Source of the DNA: a virus
Lineage: Duplodnaviria; Caudoviricetes
Direction: 5' to 3' (one strand)
IMG/VR virus record: IMGVR_UViG_3300028490_000010
Location: 1-52,979 of that record
DNA: 52,979 nucleotides
The notes under the pieces: model-generated
Seen by the model: only the letters and a program-made list of their open reading frames with translations
What the model was told of the DNA's origin: nothing
The model's database searches: none
Part shown: positions 18,729 through 41,468 of the stretch, piece after piece
Position numbering within the stretch: the first letter of the stretch is position 1
How the letters are laid out: each line of letters begins with the position of its first letter
Translations under genes and position numbers: made by a program

Positions 18729-19703
18729 TTATGTTGGTCCGCTTGCATCTCCAAACGCACCTTTCGGTAAGTCCCACCCACCACTCAAGATAATTTCTTG
18801 GTCGTATGTTTTGGACATAGCTAATCTATAGACGTCCGGCTCAACATTATATGCTGTTCCTTTATCTGCTTGTTCAACAATACTCATAGTGCGATGAATG
18901 GTTACATCAAACTCTGCCTCGTATGCAGCCACCTTGTTGAAGTGGTCTGGCATATACTTCGCTACGGTTGCCCATTGGTTAGGGCTGCCGAATATACACG
19001 TAAGACAAGATGTTCTACCCCACCCTGCTTGATAAGCTGGATGTGGGTTCACTCCGTATTGTTTTAATAAGTCCCATACTTGAGCCTCAGTAGCTTCTTT
19101 TGCTATTCTGGCATGGTAGATCAATCTCTTGGTCCTTTTGCCGTCTATGAAGCTCCTGTGTGTCTCAAACGACTTGTATTTTGCTCGTGCTGCAGACTCC
19201 TCTGCTCTCTCGCCAGTTATTACGAGATACTTCCTGTTGCCACTAAATCTAAATTGACGCTTTATTAATCTATCACCTACGTCTATTTTAAGGGCACTCG
19301 AACACCATCTGGTTGCCAGGTTTGCAGTGACCTGTGGAAACTTACGCCTTGTTCCTAATGGAGGGTTCTTTAATCCACCTGGGGCATAAACAATCTCATG
19401 GTTCTCATCCTCAAACATTATTGCTTCGGTTGCATCTTCCTCTCTTAACATCTCTCTTTCAAACCCACCAACACGCCAAGACATATACACCTTTGAGCCA
19501 AATGCTTTGCCGAATGCACGACAATAGCTTTCAGTAATAGGCCAATCCATAAGGGAGCTTCCCTCATTTCCGTCAATTAAGTGATGATGTAGTTCGATTT
19601 TATCCGGGCTAACGCCGGCTTCAAGTAGTTTAAGGTAGCAGAAAACTGAGTCTTTGCCACCAGAGAAGAAGAGTATAACCTTGTCATACTCCTCATATTT
19701 CAT
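18729..19703 (-). CDS. PAPS reductase-like (PP-loop) protein
   Basis: FSGGKDS PP-loop, RWCSSALK, TGERAEESAARA, HPAY..GWGRTSCLTCIF. Confidence 0.85.
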   Translation of the reverse strand: MKYEEYDKVILFFSGGKDSVFCYLKLLEAGVSPDKIELHHHLIDGNEGSSLMDWPITESYCRAFGKAFGSKVYMSWRVGGFEREMLREEDATEAIMFEDENHEIVYAPGGLKNPPLGTRRKFPQVTANLATRWCSSALKIDVGDRLIKRQFRFSGNRKYLVITGERAEESAARAKYKSFETHRSFIDGKRTKRLIYHARIAKEATEAQVWDLLKQYGVNPHPAYQAGWGRTSCLTCIFGSPNQWATVAKYMPDHFNKVAAYEAEFDVTIHRTMSIVEQADKGTAYNVEPDVYRLAMSKTYDQEIILSGGWDLPKGAFGDASGPT

Positions 19704-33650: not shown

Positions 33651-33923
33651 CTATCTCTCCTGTCCTGAATTTTGTTCAATAATATCAATAGTTCTCTCCA
33701 TTGATTTACGTGTTGTAATACCGAGACTAAGCATCGCACCTATAACTGTAATTGCTTTACTGTACTCATTATTATCATATATTAGATCCTCTATTTTAGA
33801 TACAAACCTTCCTGCTATATCAGAGTCCTTTGCATTATCTGCATCCTCTTTTGTTTCGTATATCTTGCCATTATATTTGAATGCTTCTACTTTCTCATAC
33901 TTATGCAACTTTTTCTCCTTCAT
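33651..33923 (-). CDS. hypothetical protein
   Basis: 90-aa ORF. Confidence 0.6.
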   Translation of the reverse strand: MKEKKLHKYEKVEAFKYNGKIYETKEDADNAKDSDIAGRFVSKIEDLIYDNNEYSKAITVIGAMLSLGITTRKSMERTIDIIEQNSGQER

Positions 33924-35457
33924 TAATTTTCACATTACTCTCAACCAGTGCTTTTGCAAGCATAGGAACAACGCTGTTTCCACACATTCTAACCTGTGCC
34001 GTTTTAGGCAACTGCTTACCCTCATACATGATATTAATCTTGTAATCCTCTGGGAAGCCTTGTGCTCTGTACAGTTCCCTGGGAGTGAACATTCTCATTG
34101 CAATATCTACAATCTCGTACTCCTGTCCCATGACCTCCACTATTGCAAATCTCTCTTTAGTGGTAACTGTATGGGCAGGGTCACTCAGTAATTGACCTTC
34201 ACCCTGTCCGTAATATTTCATCATGTAGGCACGTACTTCTGCAAAGTGTCCTCCGCCTGCCGTGACAGTATGTAGAGGAGTATCTGTCTTCAGTCCAGTA
34301 TTCCCATTACGCATCTTCATAACATGAGATGTAACGAGTTGCTGTTGAGAACCTGTTGCCGTAACTGTAGACATAGGATTGTCCGCCTTTCTACCAACGG
34401 CACCAAGGTTATGCTGAGCGATAAACGCATTCACTAAAGCGAATGTCCCACCCTTTGTCTGAGCAGTGATTGTTCTCAAAGGCTCATCTATCTTAAAGTT
34501 ACGCTGAGATGATCCATTTGCATGCTCTGTAATAATAGGAGTTACAAGGGAGTGTCTGCTTCCTCCTGCAGTTATCGTACCTACTGGTGCATCAATCTTG
34601 TTGCCACGAGCTGTGGCTCCTATAGCTCCCCCGTAAAATGTAGACACAAAAGGAGCTTTGTCCCCAACGATATACGGCTTCGGGTTATCTAAAACAAATT
34701 TCTTTAACCCTCTTGCTATTCGTTTCATCGTATTCTCTGCGAGTGGTCTACGCACTTTAACCACCTTTGCCTCCTCTTTTGAAAGAAATATTGAGTGAGT
34801 AGGGATAGACCAATCTATACATTCTGCAGCAGTTCTCCATGGAATTCTTTCAGGAAACTTATCCGGGTCTCCATGTGTAGCTTCTGGCCACGACACAGCA
34901 CTTCCATCTTTCTTTGCCACAATAAACAGTCTCTTCCGTATCGTAGGTGCTCCGTAGTCACTAGCTCTAAGCTCACGCCACTCCACATTGTAGCCCATGT
35001 CTCTAAATGCCTGTACAAAGATTTCAAAGGTTAACCCCTTGTCCTCTTTTATTGGCATGTTATCGTCATCTAGTGGACCCCAATCTTTAAACTCCTCAAC
35101 ATTCTCAAGCATGATAACGTCAGGGCTAACTGCTTTTGCCCACTTTACACCAACCCAAGCAAGACTTCTCACATTGCAACTTACAGGCTTTGAGCCTTTT
35201 GCTTTAGAGAAATGCTTACAGTCTGGACTTAGCCACAACATTGCAACCTCTTTGCCACCACATACTTCATCAGGGTCAACATCAAAAACATCTTCTATGT
35301 AATGCTTTGTGCTTGGATGATTTGCCTGATGTAGTGCTATAGCCTGTGGGTCATGGTTAACTGCCACATCAGGACTAACACCCAATGCCATTTCAATACC
35401 CGTACTTGCTCCACCGCCACCGGCGAACAAGTCTATAATCATTTTTCCATTATACAT
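33901..35457 (-). CDS. dcm: DNA (cytosine-5)-methyltransferase
   Basis: Motif I DLFAGGGG, motif IV SPDCKHFS, motif VI ENVEEF, motif VIII PTIRKRLF, RELYRAQGFP, CGNSV. Confidence 0.93.
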   Translation of the reverse strand: MYNGKMIIDLFAGGGGASTGIEMALGVSPDVAVNHDPQAIALHQANHPSTKHYIEDVFDVDPDEVCGGKEVAMLWLSPDCKHFSKAKGSKPVSCNVRSLAWVGVKWAKAVSPDVIMLENVEEFKDWGPLDDDNMPIKEDKGLTFEIFVQAFRDMGYNVEWRELRASDYGAPTIRKRLFIVAKKDGSAVSWPEATHGDPDKFPERIPWRTAAECIDWSIPTHSIFLSKEEAKVVKVRRPLAENTMKRIARGLKKFVLDNPKPYIVGDKAPFVSTFYGGAIGATARGNKIDAPVGTITAGGSRHSLVTPIITEHANGSSQRNFKIDEPLRTITAQTKGGTFALVNAFIAQHNLGAVGRKADNPMSTVTATGSQQQLVTSHVMKMRNGNTGLKTDTPLHTVTAGGGHFAEVRAYMMKYYGQGEGQLLSDPAHTVTTKERFAIVEVMGQEYEIVDIAMRMFTPRELYRAQGFPEDYKINIMYEGKQLPKTAQVRMCGNSVVPMLAKALVESNVKINEGEKVA

Positions 35458-35937: not shown

Positions 35938-36210
35938 TTACGCCTTTATGTCTGTGTTTCTTAAATCTAATGCATGCTTCAGTGCATCCTCTAGCCACTC
36001 CATCATATATGGTCTAAGCTCCTGTATCTCGCATTCTGTACGATCTGCCATTTCTTCGTCAAAAGACAACTCAAAAGGAATTGTTGACGAGTCCATATGC
36101 TCATGTATTCCATCGTCCCAGCAATCATTGTCGTACGCCAAGCCAATCATGTCATCATTCTGAACATATGTAATAGCTCTTTCTATCGCCTTAATCTCTT
36201 CTTCTAGCAT
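35938..36210 (-). CDS. acidic hypothetical protein
   Basis: 90-aa ORF. Confidence 0.6.
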   Translation of the reverse strand: MLEEEIKAIERAITYVQNDDMIGLAYDNDCWDDGIHEHMDSSTIPFELSFDEEMADRTECEIQELRPYMMEWLEDALKHALDLRNTDIKA

Positions 36211-36947
36211 TTAACGCTCCTTTCTAGTCCGTCTTTATCAGACAGTCTCGCAAGTATCTTTTCGGGTGTATCCCTAGAATGATTTCTGGCAAGGTTTGTA
36301 CTGTCACCACTATGGAAAGCAAAGTTTCCAAATATCTTATGGTTCAAGCATCTCAGCATATGCACTTTCACCAAGGGCACTCCGTCTTTATCACTAAGTA
36401 AACTCATCGCTGTGCTTACTTTTTTATTCCATTTCTCAGTACCTAAAGTGCTAAACTCTCCTGCACTTCCAAATGCTATGTATGGATAGTCTGAAGCAAG
36501 TCTGCCCAAACGCTCAAAGCTCTCATTCACATGCCACACAGGTATCCCATTCATAAGGTTACACTCTGTCAGCAATGCGTCATTATCCTCTTCACTACCA
36601 TCTATAACATCAGGCAGAATAAACTCTGTTATGTCTGCATATATGCTATCTATCCACGTGTAGTAGGGGTCCCAAGAGATTGTCTTTTTTTTACCCCGCT
36701 TTTTATTCTGCATCCATATGGAGAATGCACCATTGTCAATCATTATCTCTTTTGCATGTATCTTGGCTAACTCAAACTGGTCTGGTCTGGCAAAGCTAAC
36801 AAGTGCATTTCTGAAGTTTATATGCTCCTTAAATACCTTGTTCGGCGTGATGGGAGTACCGTGATAAACCGTAAAGTTTTTACCGCTTCGTATCCGCTCT
36901 AATACATCTCTACTGAGACAGTTTTTAGGATACTTCATCCTGCCCAA
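36204..36947 (-). CDS. TGT/DpdA-related transglycosylase-like TIM barrel protein
   Basis: YHGTPITP, VSF, IDNGAFS, LPDVIDG, PVWH, IAFGS, VHML, SGDST. Confidence 0.6.
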   Translation of the reverse strand: MGRMKYPKNCLSRDVLERIRSGKNFTVYHGTPITPNKVFKEHINFRNALVSFARPDQFELAKIHAKEIMIDNGAFSIWMQNKKRGKKKTISWDPYYTWIDSIYADITEFILPDVIDGSEEDNDALLTECNLMNGIPVWHVNESFERLGRLASDYPYIAFGSAGEFSTLGTEKWNKKVSTAMSLLSDKDGVPLVKVHMLRCLNHKIFGNFAFHSGDSTNLARNHSRDTPEKILARLSDKDGLERSVKC

Positions 36948-38103
36948 TCAAATGAGAAGGAACTCCCATGGCTCCAGAGATTTCCGACACTGCGTTATCA
37001 ATACCACTCATCAGATCTTTCAGTTCACCAAATAATTCGTCTAGCCCAACATCCATCTCCTCTGCGTACGCCTTGTCTCTGTCTCTCTTGTCATCCTCTG
37101 CATATGCTGCTCTCTCTGCAATCACAGTCGCTACCATCTTATCTATATCTGCAAGAGGAATTGTATGACATCCAATATGTGCATTCTTGTCCTCATCTAT
37201 ACCTCCGTAGGTATAGGCTCCTATGTGCATGCCTTTATTGAGCTTACCTTTACTGAAGCGGATATATGCACGAATGGCATCTCCCATTCCAATAGAGGCA
37301 TTCTCTGTTGTCTCAATAGTATTGTCTACAATTCTAAGGTATACCTTGTCAAGATAACCCCTGTTGACATAAACCTCTTCTCCCTTAAGCCACAGTGCCA
37401 ACTGAGATTGAGCCTTCTCGTACTCTTTTTTCTTTTGCTTTTCAAGGTCACGTACCTTTTTAGATCTAGCCCTTTGCTCAGCCATCATTCTATCTTTTAC
37501 TGACTGTTCTATTTTGCTCTCAAAATCGACATCATCAGGCATAGGGAATTTTACAATCTGCTTGTATGGAGATGTCTTCTTTAGTTTAAAATATGAGGCA
37601 TATCTGTTTGCCACACTCACATTTTCAGCCATGGCATTAGCCACAGCCTTTCTCGTACTGTCCCTTCTCTTCTTGGGATATTCTTCCGCAAGGTGATCTA
37701 GGTTGGACAAGAGCACATTAAGGTTTGATTGATGATCGTCCATATAGCATGGGTCTGGGTTTGCTATATACAGGTAGTCCATATGGGAAGCTGCAGATAA
37801 TATAGCTCCCATGTGGGTTTGTGTTGTGGGACTGTAGTTATTGCTTGTGAGAAGTATAAGTGGTTGACCACCTTTTTTAACTGGGTCAAACATTCTTCCG
37901 ATAACCGTACTGTACGATTTTATTCTCGTCCCCTCTGCAGACATCCTGTAAACACCACCACGTCTATCAAACGCTGTAGATGCGTGTCCATTATTGTACA
38001 CCCACCAGTGAGCCAAACCAAGATAGTCATAGCTCCCAGGTGATCTTGGGTTTTCAGACTTTCTCTTCCGTACCTTCTTATCCAATAAGGGCATGACAGA
38101 CAT
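36925..38103 (-). CDS. conserved-looking basic phage protein
   Basis: SYSTVIG...YSPTTQTH; C-terminal IGCHTIP module. Confidence 0.7.
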   Translation of the reverse strand: MSVMPLLDKKVRKRKSENPRSPGSYDYLGLAHWWVYNNGHASTAFDRRGGVYRMSAEGTRIKSYSTVIGRMFDPVKKGGQPLILLTSNNYSPTTQTHMGAILSAASHMDYLYIANPDPCYMDDHQSNLNVLLSNLDHLAEEYPKKRRDSTRKAVANAMAENVSVANRYASYFKLKKTSPYKQIVKFPMPDDVDFESKIEQSVKDRMMAEQRARSKKVRDLEKQKKKEYEKAQSQLALWLKGEEVYVNRGYLDKVYLRIVDNTIETTENASIGMGDAIRAYIRFSKGKLNKGMHIGAYTYGGIDEDKNAHIGCHTIPLADIDKMVATVIAERAAYAEDDKRDRDKAYAEEMDVGLDELFGELKDLMSGIDNAVSEISGAMGVPSHLIGQDEVS

Positions 38104-38611: not shown

Positions 38612-38801
38612 CCTTTATGTCTTCACTACCGCACACCTCACAGGCATACGGCTCTTCAAAGTCTCCCATTGTTGGGTTCTTATCCATTTCAATCCACTCA
38701 ACAAACCTTCCATCACCATCTATTTTGGCAACAGCATCAATCTGACCAAGGGAAGTAAAAGACTCATTATTCCCACAGTCATTACATGTATACCTAGCCA
38801 C
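38595..38801 (-). CDS. small zinc ribbon protein
   Basis: CNDCGN...CEVCGS. Confidence 0.65.
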   Translation of the reverse strand: MARYTCNDCGNNESFTSLGQIDAVAKIDGDGRFVEWIEMDKNPTMGDFEEPYACEVCGSEDIKDEDYD

Positions 38802-39159
38802 GAGCTAAACTTTCATCGACCACAATATCACTCATGTTCGTTTTTGGCATTGCATTGTCTGCAATAATTTTAAAGTCAGGAGCGATATCAACTCCTAATC
38901 TTCTTCGACACACAAGTCTCGAATAGTTAGCCAAGTCAACCCATGAGTCTTTTGCTGACTCTCCTCTGGCTGTAACACTTCTACTCATCTTCAGTGCGAG
39001 CAAGGTGTAGTCTACATTCTCTTCTGCTGTAAGCCCTTTACTTCCAACACTTACTGTTCGTCTAAGCTCATCCATCGCTGCCACGACTTTTGCAACTGCT
39101 GTTGCCTGATCTTCGTATTTTCCGTACTGCTCTTCTTTATTATTTAGTGTATCTTCCAT
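38794..39159 (-). CDS. DUF6378-like helical protein
   Basis: TL..KEEQYG...LKMSR...DSWVDLANYSRL. Confidence 0.65.
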   Translation of the reverse strand: MEDTLNNKEEQYGKYEDQATAVAKVVAAMDELRRTVSVGSKGLTAEENVDYTLLALKMSRSVTARGESAKDSWVDLANYSRLVCRRRLGVDIAPDFKIIADNAMPKTNMSDIVVDESLARG

Positions 39160-40505: not shown

Positions 40506-41468
40506 TTATCGAGTACGTTCGACCAGTCCACGCATCGACTTTGCAAGAGTTCTTACTTCCCACTGAGCCTTTCCAGCACTTCGCAGTTCTACCATATCAT
40601 CGAATTGTGGCTTAAACCAAGCTGACCAGATCTTAGTAATTGCACCTTGAGGAATAATCCTCCTTGCGTCTTGAGGTTTCACTCCATTCTCTATTGCTTT
40701 ATCATAGAGCTGTAATGCAAGCATCACTAGAGAAGTAGCATCAATATGTCTATGCTCGCTTATTGGAACAGAGATTTTATCGCTTAACATATCCTCTGTG
40801 AGGTAAACCTCAAACGGAACTTTCTTCCCGGACACATATCTTCGTGACAACTCCTGCCATGATGTTCTATGTCTCATGAACTGCCTAGCCGTAACGATAT
40901 CTATCTCTGTGTGAAAGACATAGAAGTTTTCGTGGATCAAGGCTATCTCGGTAGGGTCTGTGTTAAAAAACCTTTCTGAGGGATCAATCCTTTCATCTTC
41001 CGCAAGAAACTTATTAATAATTTCAATATCATACAGTAAAGCTCTTAGGTTAGTAAGCCTGTACACATCTCTGCCATAGACAACAGTCATACCATACTTT
41101 TCAATATGAGGGCCTTGAGTAAAATTACCCATGCCGCTAATAAGATGTCTCATGTATTCATTATTGATAAACTCTGCATCAAACGAGTTAAGCAGTACCG
41201 GCACAAATTCAAATGATGATGACGGCAGCCCTAGCGACTCAGCGTGTAGCTTGTCATACAAGGCAGATGTGCCAACCTTGACATTGCTCTGGAAGCATAT
41301 AGAGGCTACCTTTTGTACCGCATCAATTCTAGCCTGCTGATTTGAATTCGCATAACTAAAATCCCATTTCTCTGCCGAACCAGCAGAACCAAATAGACCG
41401 GTATCCTTCGCCATAGGGATAACTTGATCTACATCAACTACCCCTTCTTCTGTCATCTTCTTTTCCAT
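40506..41468 (-). CDS. thyX: flavin-dependent thymidylate synthase
   Basis: ARQFMRHRTSWQELSRRY, GVKPQDARRIIPQ, LRS..KAQWEVR. Confidence 0.9.
   Translation of the reverse strand: MEKKMTEEGVVDVDQVIPMAKDTGLFGSAGSAEKWDFSYANSNQQARIDAVQKVASICFQSNVKVGTSALYDKLHAESLGLPSSSFEFVPVLLNSFDAEFINNEYMRHLISGMGNFTQGPHIEKYGMTVVYGRDVYRLTNLRALLYDIEIINKFLAEDERIDPSERFFNTDPTEIALIHENFYVFHTEIDIVTARQFMRHRTSWQELSRRYVSGKKVPFEVYLTEDMLSDKISVPISEHRHIDATSLVMLALQLYDKAIENGVKPQDARRIIPQGAITKIWSAWFKPQFDDMVELRSAGKAQWEVRTLAKSMRGLVERTR

Follow-up and report, generated by a model that had tools for sequence, protein, structure and literature searches.

The DNA analysed here, called the window below, is the whole of IMG/VR record IMGVR_UViG_3300028490_000010, 52,979 nucleotides (nt) from a virus of the Caudoviricetes, and the gene of interest is an open reading frame (ORF) on its minus strand, at positions 36204–36947, which we assign to the short, "singleton" subfamily of the DpdA family. 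An earlier reading based on the sequence only (the sequence-only reading) had described a protein of about 245 aa with five motifs, and all of them are confirmed: IDNGAFS at residues 70–76, PDVIDG at 112–117, PVWH at 136–139, VHML at 195–198 and SGDST at 213–217. The ORF encodes 247 aa when read from a TTG at 36947. The gene call of the source record (P0270) gives 244 aa from an ATG at residue 4 (36938), which is likely the true start. A call by an alternative public pipeline (P0007, on a contig of 192,328 b, identical in sequence to the corresponding part of the window protein) begins at M69 and yields only 179 aa; it drops the segment 36741–36947 of the minus strand and with it strands 1 and 2 and most of strand 3 of the predicted barrel. 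This shorter call is wrong, because alignments with homologues already begin at residue 28. Such truncation would conceal the DpdA-like family in automated surveys.

Family membership, fold and putative active site

The protein belongs to phrog_887 (E = 2.2e-53), which bears the label "queuine tRNA-ribosyltransferase". The DpdA protein of phage CAjan falls into the same family (E = 8.2e-96). CAjan DpdA, whose sequence we took from the annotated record as a reference, is a genetically validated insertase of the 7-deazaguanine base preQ0 into DNA: the deletion mutant was reported to contain <6 dPreQ0 per 10^6 nt, against 70,628 in the wild type (PMC6884629). A profile built from an alignment of 87 diverse relatives of the window protein (alignment A1) matched CAjan DpdA in hhalign with 98.9% probability (E = 1.5e-17, 172 columns) and paired IDNGAFS with LDSGAFS, PVWH with PCFH, KVH with KLH and SGDS with SCDS. 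Direct pairwise similarity to CAjan DpdA is weak (BLASTP, 24% identity over 136 residues, E = 3e-6). The 234-aa DpdA of Salmonella phage 7-11 is much closer, with 36% identity (BLASTP E = 3e-41) and a profile match at 100% probability (E = 6.5e-50). Matches to the window protein also include the SW9 and SEN1 proteins, the nearest relatives of the DpdA of Pantoea phage MED16, which its authors grouped with SW9 gp39 and SEN1 gp38 in a cluster termed "DpdA/TGT_1" (PMC8306585).

General family databases were uninformative: searches of Pfam, NCBIfam and PDB sequences with the window protein gave no family match, and the cut-off of the Pfam family for tRNA-guanine transglycosylases (TGT, PF01702) was not reached, with no hmmscan match and none in a six-frame search at E<=1. 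Matches obtained from PDB sequences with phmmer and the A1 profile (bL27m, a snake venom protease and GCN4) were rejected as chance. Comparison of A1 with a two-sequence TGT alignment, a thin template, gave 1.4% in hhalign; for the MED16 homologue its authors reported an HHpred probability of 99.18% to the TGT structure 2ASH (PMC8306585). The family is large, comprising 870 proteins at E<=1e-3 in a collection clustered at 90%, or 571 representatives at 50% identity (318 of these at E<=1e-10), and it occurs in 105 phage records, in each of which the protein is <60% identical to that of the window. At least seven relatives with 70–87% identity have an intact copy of the ORF. Residues D71, D113, H139, H196 and D215, one from each motif, are invariant in all 87 aligned relatives; given this invariance and the size of the family, the five motifs are not due to chance.

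An AlphaFold2 run with the single sequence was unusable (predicted local distance difference test score, pLDDT, 35.6), and it was repeated with A1. The resulting model (pLDDT 89.3, pTM 0.85) has eight strand-helix units that form a (beta/alpha)8 barrel core at residues 26–236 (36240–36872, minus strand), with strands at 26–30, 46–51, 65–71, 108–110, 137–139, 156–160, 194–197 and 213–216. Foldseek searches of the PDB returned generic TIM barrels only, with neither TGT nor DpdA among the matches listed; in a comparison of folds the TGTs were nearest, by a small margin over unrelated barrels. Matches in BFVD were phage "queuine tRNA-ribosyltransferases" and, more weakly, proteins of phiST and nt-1. 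The predicted fold thus supports the TGT/DpdA assignment without proving it.

The five invariant residues lie in the model at or just past the C-terminal ends of strands 3, 4, 5, 7 and 8. The C-terminal ends of the strands are where the active sites of TIM barrels are located. D71 (codon 36735–36737, minus strand, like all codons given here) stands at the end of strand 3 and is aligned with the Asp of CAjan LDSGAFS; D113 (36609–36611) lies just past strand 4; H139 (36531–36533) ends strand 5 and is aligned with the His of CAjan PCFH; H196 (36360–36362, in KVHML) ends strand 7 and is aligned with the His of KLHAFG; and D215 (36303–36305) ends strand 8 and is aligned with the Asp of SCDSSS. For the bacterial enzyme, Asp95 was described as the general acid/base, followed by Phe99, Asp130 and His181 as base-binding residues and Asp256 as the nucleophile; in that account Asp95 precedes the beta3/alpha3 insertion, and the beta8/alpha8 insertion begins at residue 256 (PMC10164549). 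On the topology described there, D71 would be the general acid/base, equivalent to Asp95 of S. Montevideo DpdA, with F75 corresponding to Phe99, and D215 would be the nucleophile, equivalent to Asp256. D113 may be the base-recognition Asp equivalent to Asp130; this assignment is unsettled, because hhalign pairs the middle Asp of CAjan with D116, which is Asp in just 50 of the 87 sequences, and not with D113. The model thus contains a TIM barrel with conserved Asp residues at the expected positions and, together with the profile match, these support the TGT/DpdA-like enzyme proposed by the sequence-only reading, here placed in the singleton subfamily.

Comparison with characterized relatives shows what the short form lacks. 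The catalytic motifs occur in the same order as in the DpdA1 proteins of CAjan and 9g, and the spacing from DxGxF to xDSx is 143 residues in the window protein and 142 in CAjan DpdA, whereas the tail after the nucleophile motif is 100 residues long in CAjan and 32 in the window protein. The CxCxxC zinc motif is found in none of the 87 family members, and the beta8-alpha8 loop has about one residue in the model. Since the DpdAs of CAjan, 7-11, BTP1, AB3P2 and D105 do not have the motif either, a missing zinc site is normal for phage DpdAs. In contrast, DpdA of the bacterial Dpd system (S. Montevideo, PDB 7UI4) has a beta8/alpha8 insertion of about 128 residues and a CXCX2CX22H zinc site, both absent from the window protein; it was also reported to require DpdB and ATP, whereas phage DpdAs act alone (PMC10164549, PMC6884629). 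Similarity to bacterial TGT, archaeal ArcTGT and the TGT-like CBASS protein Cap10 is not significant in sequence or profile comparisons; the window protein is about 130–330 residues shorter than these and has no zinc subdomain and no tRNA-binding or protein-binding additions.

The DpdA-only group and the source of the base

DpdA has been called the signature of 7-deazaguanine DNA in viruses, with bDpdA and DpdA1-4 defined as its types (Cui et al. 2023, PMC10516641). A "DpdA-only" or singleton group that includes phage 7-11 DpdA was described in 2019 by Hutinet et al. (PMC6884629), who listed 76 DpdA-only phages, found that the singleton DpdAs form similarity clusters of their own, left open whether they diverged in function, and proposed that these phages rely on preQ0 of the host or on uptake. 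For the DpdA-only group a host-supplied base is therefore an already published hypothesis. According to the same source, 7-11 DNA contains 50 dADG per 10^6 nt (~0.02% of G) and <6 dPreQ0, while no modification was reported for phage Orion, whose host makes no preQ0. In MED16, a second dpdA-only phage, 354 dADG (~0.13% of G) and 3 dPreQ0 per 10^6 nt were reported, and the restriction enzymes tried were not visibly affected (PMC8306585). In the literature searched, we found no direct assay of a singleton DpdA. The sequence-only reading had seen in the window a candidate for an uncharacterised modification system; since the protein falls into the group published in 2019 (PMC6884629), this is not supported, and the gene is a further member of a known phage family.

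With 7-11 gp032 and MED16 DpdA the window protein shares the short architecture (234–260 aa), the motifs xDNGAFS, PDVIxG, PVWH, K-x-H-x-LR and S-x-DS, a genome devoid of preQ0 genes and a location among genes of replication and nucleotide metabolism. It differs from them in that the window copy and its six closest relatives are extended at the N terminus by 24 residues and have a basic insert, KKRGKKK, behind DNGAFS, and in that the carrier phage is ~190 kb and not 30–90 kb long; this phage is known only from metagenomic contigs, and its host is probably not an enterobacterium.

CAjan encodes FolE, QueD, QueE, QueC and YhhQ beside dpdA, whereas the window does not: the absence of que and folE genes noted in the sequence-only reading is confirmed by Pfam profile searches, which found no QueC, PTPS/QueD, FolE, TGT, Vut_1, radical-SAM or QueF match in the window. 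Because the record is estimated to be only 28% complete, this absence by itself says little. We therefore attach more weight to a relative (G001; 187,664 b, with terminal repeats, rated 100% complete), whose DpdA is 87% identical and whose gene order is the same. The search of this complete genome revealed no QueC, PTPS/QueD, FolE, Vut_1 (YhhQ) or QueF and no recognisable QueE. Its lone radical-SAM ORF (L071:1483-2202, plus strand, 239 aa) resembles generic maturases and viperin-type proteins at scores that fall far short of the model cut-offs (E = 1.6e-8 for NF038283, the prokaryotic viperin model) and matches no QueE model; a weakly glycosyltransferase-like ORF adjoins it. Since G001 is devoid of the pathway genes, the window clade counts as "DpdA-only", and the complete relative fits the idea of the sequence-only reading that the base is supplied by the host. 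Because neither the window nor the complete relative encodes a preQ0 pathway or transporter, the base would be taken from the host queuosine pathway, and a base made by the host is the most likely source.

Bacterial loci with DpdA-like genes point the same way. A scan of one genome per prokaryote species with a closer alignment (A2) gave 65 loci from many phyla, the DpdA-like ORF being recovered in 65 of 66 loci examined (64 bacterial ones and L001, the locus of an 87%-identical relative). A homologue of the YhhQ-type transporter of CAjan abuts DpdA on the same strand in 19 of the 65 loci (15 of the 46 with at least 1 kb on both sides), and all 13 of these YhhQ-like proteins that were tested exceed the Pfam Vut_1 cut-off. 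The transporter lies upstream of DpdA in loci of Solirubrobacterales and downstream in most others, which span Bacteroidetes, Phycisphaerales, Rhizobiales, Acetobacteraceae and Ideonella. DpdA has a QueD/PTPS gene as its direct neighbour in a cluster of six loci (E = 6.5e-33 in one example) and a QueE-like gene in one locus. Among 118 immediately flanking ORFs the commonest Pfam families are Vut_1 (7), C5 DNA methylase (5), PTPS (5), PAPS_reduct (3), N6_N4 methyltransferase (2) and DUF1376 (2); radical SAM is among the 12 families seen once.

Presence of the transporter was compared with the ability of the host to make preQ0, represented by QueC, in 50 genomes; 15 loci on short contigs had been left out beforehand (L011, L013, L015, L021, L022, L028, L036, L037, L038, L040, L060, L062, L065, L067 and L069), among them one YhhQ-positive locus, L028. 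Full-length QueC (E<=1e-57) was found in 34 genomes, and the other 16 showed PP-loop fragments only or nothing. YhhQ is adjacent to DpdA in 13 of the 16 QueC-less genomes and in 5 of the 34 that bear QueC (odds ratio 25, Fisher p = 8.9e-6, a calculation that ignores shared ancestry); nine of the 13 are related prophages of Solirubrobacterales, and many of the genomes are metagenome-assembled (MAGs), although at least two QueC-less ones (L019 and L031) are labelled complete chromosomes. The two Campylobacterota genomes with the closest bacterial DpdA copies do carry QueC. As judged from these genomes, the pattern is what a preQ0-dependent enzyme would give, with the transporter accompanying the gene where the host cannot make the base; and because YhhQ and QueD adjoin DpdA and YhhQ tracks the absence of host QueC, a 7-deazaguanine substrate supplied by the host gains support. 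Among the isolated phages surveyed by Hutinet et al., YhhQ was reported to correlate with no phage group (PMC6884629).

In 11 prophage-like loci of Solirubrobacterales (L016, L019, L024, L025, L027–L031, L033 and L035; at ~3.7–6.7 kb of each locus) YhhQ (Vut_1) and DpdA are co-directional. Most of their hosts contain PP-loop fragments and not full-length QueC, the host of L016, which has QueC, being an exception. A C5 methyltransferase gene lies directly upstream of the pair in L025 and L030, and beside DpdA, with no YhhQ detected, in L018 and L023. The YhhQ-DpdA loci look like a salvage-dependent 7-deazaguanine module.

Neighbouring genes and the carrier phage

The window is about 28% of a phage of ~190 kb, relatives at 74–87% identity residing on contigs of 183–192 kb. 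The minus strand carries every sizeable gene and nearly every larger ORF. In each of the 26 two-kb bins GC skew is below zero, at -0.17 to -0.32 in 25 of them and -0.09 in the last. The two features fit one long co-directional early/replication transcription unit. The DpdA-like gene is part of a replication and nucleotide-metabolism module, with a DnaD-like loader, DnaB helicase, both ribonucleotide reductase subunits, primase, a ThyX-like protein, the Dcm methyltransferase, an SbcC-like protein, a MazG-like nucleoside triphosphate pyrophosphohydrolase, a PAPS-reductase-like protein and DNA ligase. The window contains no tRNA genes and no match to Rfam families, including the preQ1 riboswitch, and megablast of 15 kb of it against phage records gave no match. 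The primase is closest to those of Helicobacter phages and prophages (36–37% identity), and the best matches of the DpdA-like protein in bacterial genomes come from one MAG each of Helicobacteraceae (52%) and Campylobacteraceae (46%). The host is thus probably not an enterobacterium, and there are weak hints of Campylobacterota.

The methyltransferase gene (33901–35457, minus strand; 518 aa) encodes a C5 cytosine DNA methyltransferase (PF00145, E = 8.8e-39; phrog_116, E = 3.7e-97; PADLOC MTase_II). Its Pfam match is split into two stretches, of which the best covers residues 7–194, and separate PHROG families match residues 5–151 and 438–511, so that some 240 residues would form a large insert or a target-recognition region. 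Upstream of DpdA, an ORF of 392 aa (36925–38103, minus strand) has its end overlapping the DpdA start by 14–23 nt and is kept in L001 (E = 6.9e-88). It matches no Pfam, NCBIfam or PADLOC family and only phrog_7247, of unknown function (E = 1.9e-10); in the atlas its neighbours are hypothetical clusters confined to viruses, with DUF8033 as a weak lead. We rejected it as a conserved partner of DpdA, as it has one weak phage match and is present only in L001 among the 66 loci. The PADLOC models for DpdA, DpdB and DpdC match neither the ORF nor any of seven neighbouring proteins. The DUF6378-like gene of the sequence-only reading exists as an ORF (38794–39159), with a borderline family match of 26.8 bits against a cut-off of 27.1.

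Two further proteins deserve mention. The ThyX-like protein (40506–41468, minus strand; 320 aa) matches Pfam Thy1 over residues 183–317 (profile positions 59–186 of 191, E = 1.5e-19), and its first ~180 residues match nothing in Pfam and PHROG searches; it may be no more than a divergent ThyX, or else a flavin-dependent enzyme of an unusual kind that modifies pyrimidines. The PAPS-reductase-like PP-loop protein (18729–19703, minus strand; phrog_424, E = 7.9e-32) gives weak partial matches to BrxP, SspD and DndC models and may be another DNA-modification or anti-defence gene. Its PAPS_reduct domain is that of the fourth commonest immediate neighbour of singleton DpdAs in the bacterial loci.

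Predicted function, alternatives and implications

The gene probably specifies a singleton phage DpdA which, once the phage DNA has been replicated, places in it preQ0 made by the host; the form finally observed may be dADG. From the evidence above we infer the following activity, base, residue roles and purpose. The enzyme, of the TGT superfamily and (beta/alpha)8 fold, would remove guanine from double-stranded DNA post-replication and insert a 7-deazaguanine base by double displacement, with D215 as the nucleophile and D71 as the general acid/base, while D113 and the invariant histidines would bind the base. The base, preQ0 possibly ending as dADG, would be drawn from the host queuosine pathway. 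Modification is probably partial and motif-specific and may serve restriction evasion, and the nearby Dcm would not be a partner.

A distinctly less probable possibility, the main rival, is that the singleton enzyme has diverged and is a DNA transglycosylase that favours a base other than preQ0, candidates being preQ1, the intermediates ADG and CDG of QueC catalysis in the host, and further purine analogues. Both singleton phages analysed by liquid chromatography-mass spectrometry, 7-11 and MED16, were reported to carry dADG with dPreQ0 at or below detection, no DpdC-type model matched any of 10 window proteins tested, and the invariant PD113 motif is particular to the subfamily and offset from the Asp of CAjan. 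Functional divergence of singleton DpdAs was also called open by Hutinet et al. (PMC6884629), and DpdA2 enzymes are described as promiscuous (PMC10516641). Yet all DpdAs tested so far were reported to insert preQ0 (PMC10516641), dADG could come from dPreQ0 via an unidentified hydratase, and in other genomes singleton genes adjoin a transporter family of the preQ0 type and QueD/QueE, which speaks for the ordinary preQ0 route.

Related to this is a broader proposal, which we consider unlikely: the short singleton DpdAs would be a functionally distinct clade that yields dADG and not dPreQ0, either by direct insertion of the amide base from the host QueC reaction or salvage or through an unrecognised hydratase. 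In the window phage the enzyme would be combined with Dcm for layered protection of G and C and would depend fully on host queuosine metabolism. If this were true, the Que status of the host would be a determinant of host range. The PAPS-reductase-like PP-loop protein is a speculative candidate for the hydratase, and any link between it and dADG formation is pure speculation.

That DpdA and Dcm form one cooperative, uncharacterised system which installs a new base, as the sequence-only reading had it, we regard as improbable. The Dcm gene does lie within 1 kb, as that reading stated: the two genes are on the same strand 746 nt apart, and the arrangement is kept in the 87%-identical L001. A C5 methyltransferase also flanks DpdA in L010 and four loci of Solirubrobacterales and is the second commonest flanking family. 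Nevertheless, these amount to only six of the 65 loci, from about three lineages, and no annotated methyltransferase occurs within 4 kb of dpdA in the three phage contexts inspected (AB3P2, BTP1 and Vibrio D105); in BTP1, dpdA sits in the early-left region as an accessory gene flanked by ead/Ea22-like and eaA. In the window, three small unrelated ORFs lie between the two genes, both enzymes are complete stand-alone types with different target bases, and N6/N4 methyltransferases are neighbours as well, as expected if phage anti-restriction genes merely cluster. The coupling is therefore not supported, and Dcm is probably a separate cytosine-methylation gene of the same module, independent of DpdA.

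Action on host or phage tRNA instead of DNA is, in our estimate, a still more improbable role. It is suggested by a fold nearest to the tRNA-guanine transglycosylases and by the label "queuine tRNA-ribosyltransferase" given to relatives in RefSeq and PHROGs, but such labels are transferred by homology, and the PHROG member that has been validated works on DNA. Moreover, the window protein has neither the zinc subdomain nor the beta8/alpha8 insertion, which binds tRNA in TGT, singleton phages were reported to carry dADG in their DNA (PMC6884629, PMC8306585), and the window has no tRNA genes. Least probable of all is a catalytically idle or repurposed relic, for instance a DNA-binding or glycosylase-only protein: the singleton DpdA of Orion gave no modification and DpdA1 of phiSM was reported to be inactive in E. 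coli, but the Orion result was put down to a host without preQ0 synthesis (PMC6884629), and neither the invariance of five putative active-site residues in 87 diverse relatives nor the intact ORF in at least seven close ones fits a relic.

With the window gene read as a singleton DpdA fed by the host, the window adds a large, uncultured and probably non-enterobacterial phage clade to the DpdA-only group; phages that encode no pathway are the largest group of DpdA phages and also the least understood. The gene itself is ordinary; interest now attaches to what singleton DpdAs do and to the YhhQ/QueC pattern. The latter suggests a candidate rule, according to which a preQ0 transporter accompanies singleton DpdAs chiefly in hosts unable to make preQ0, and they occur by themselves in hosts that can. 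If the rule holds, one could predict from a bacterium's queuosine status whether phages of this type are able to modify their DNA in it, a matter relevant to restriction evasion and to defences that recognise modified DNA, GrwAB and the Dag glycosylases among them.

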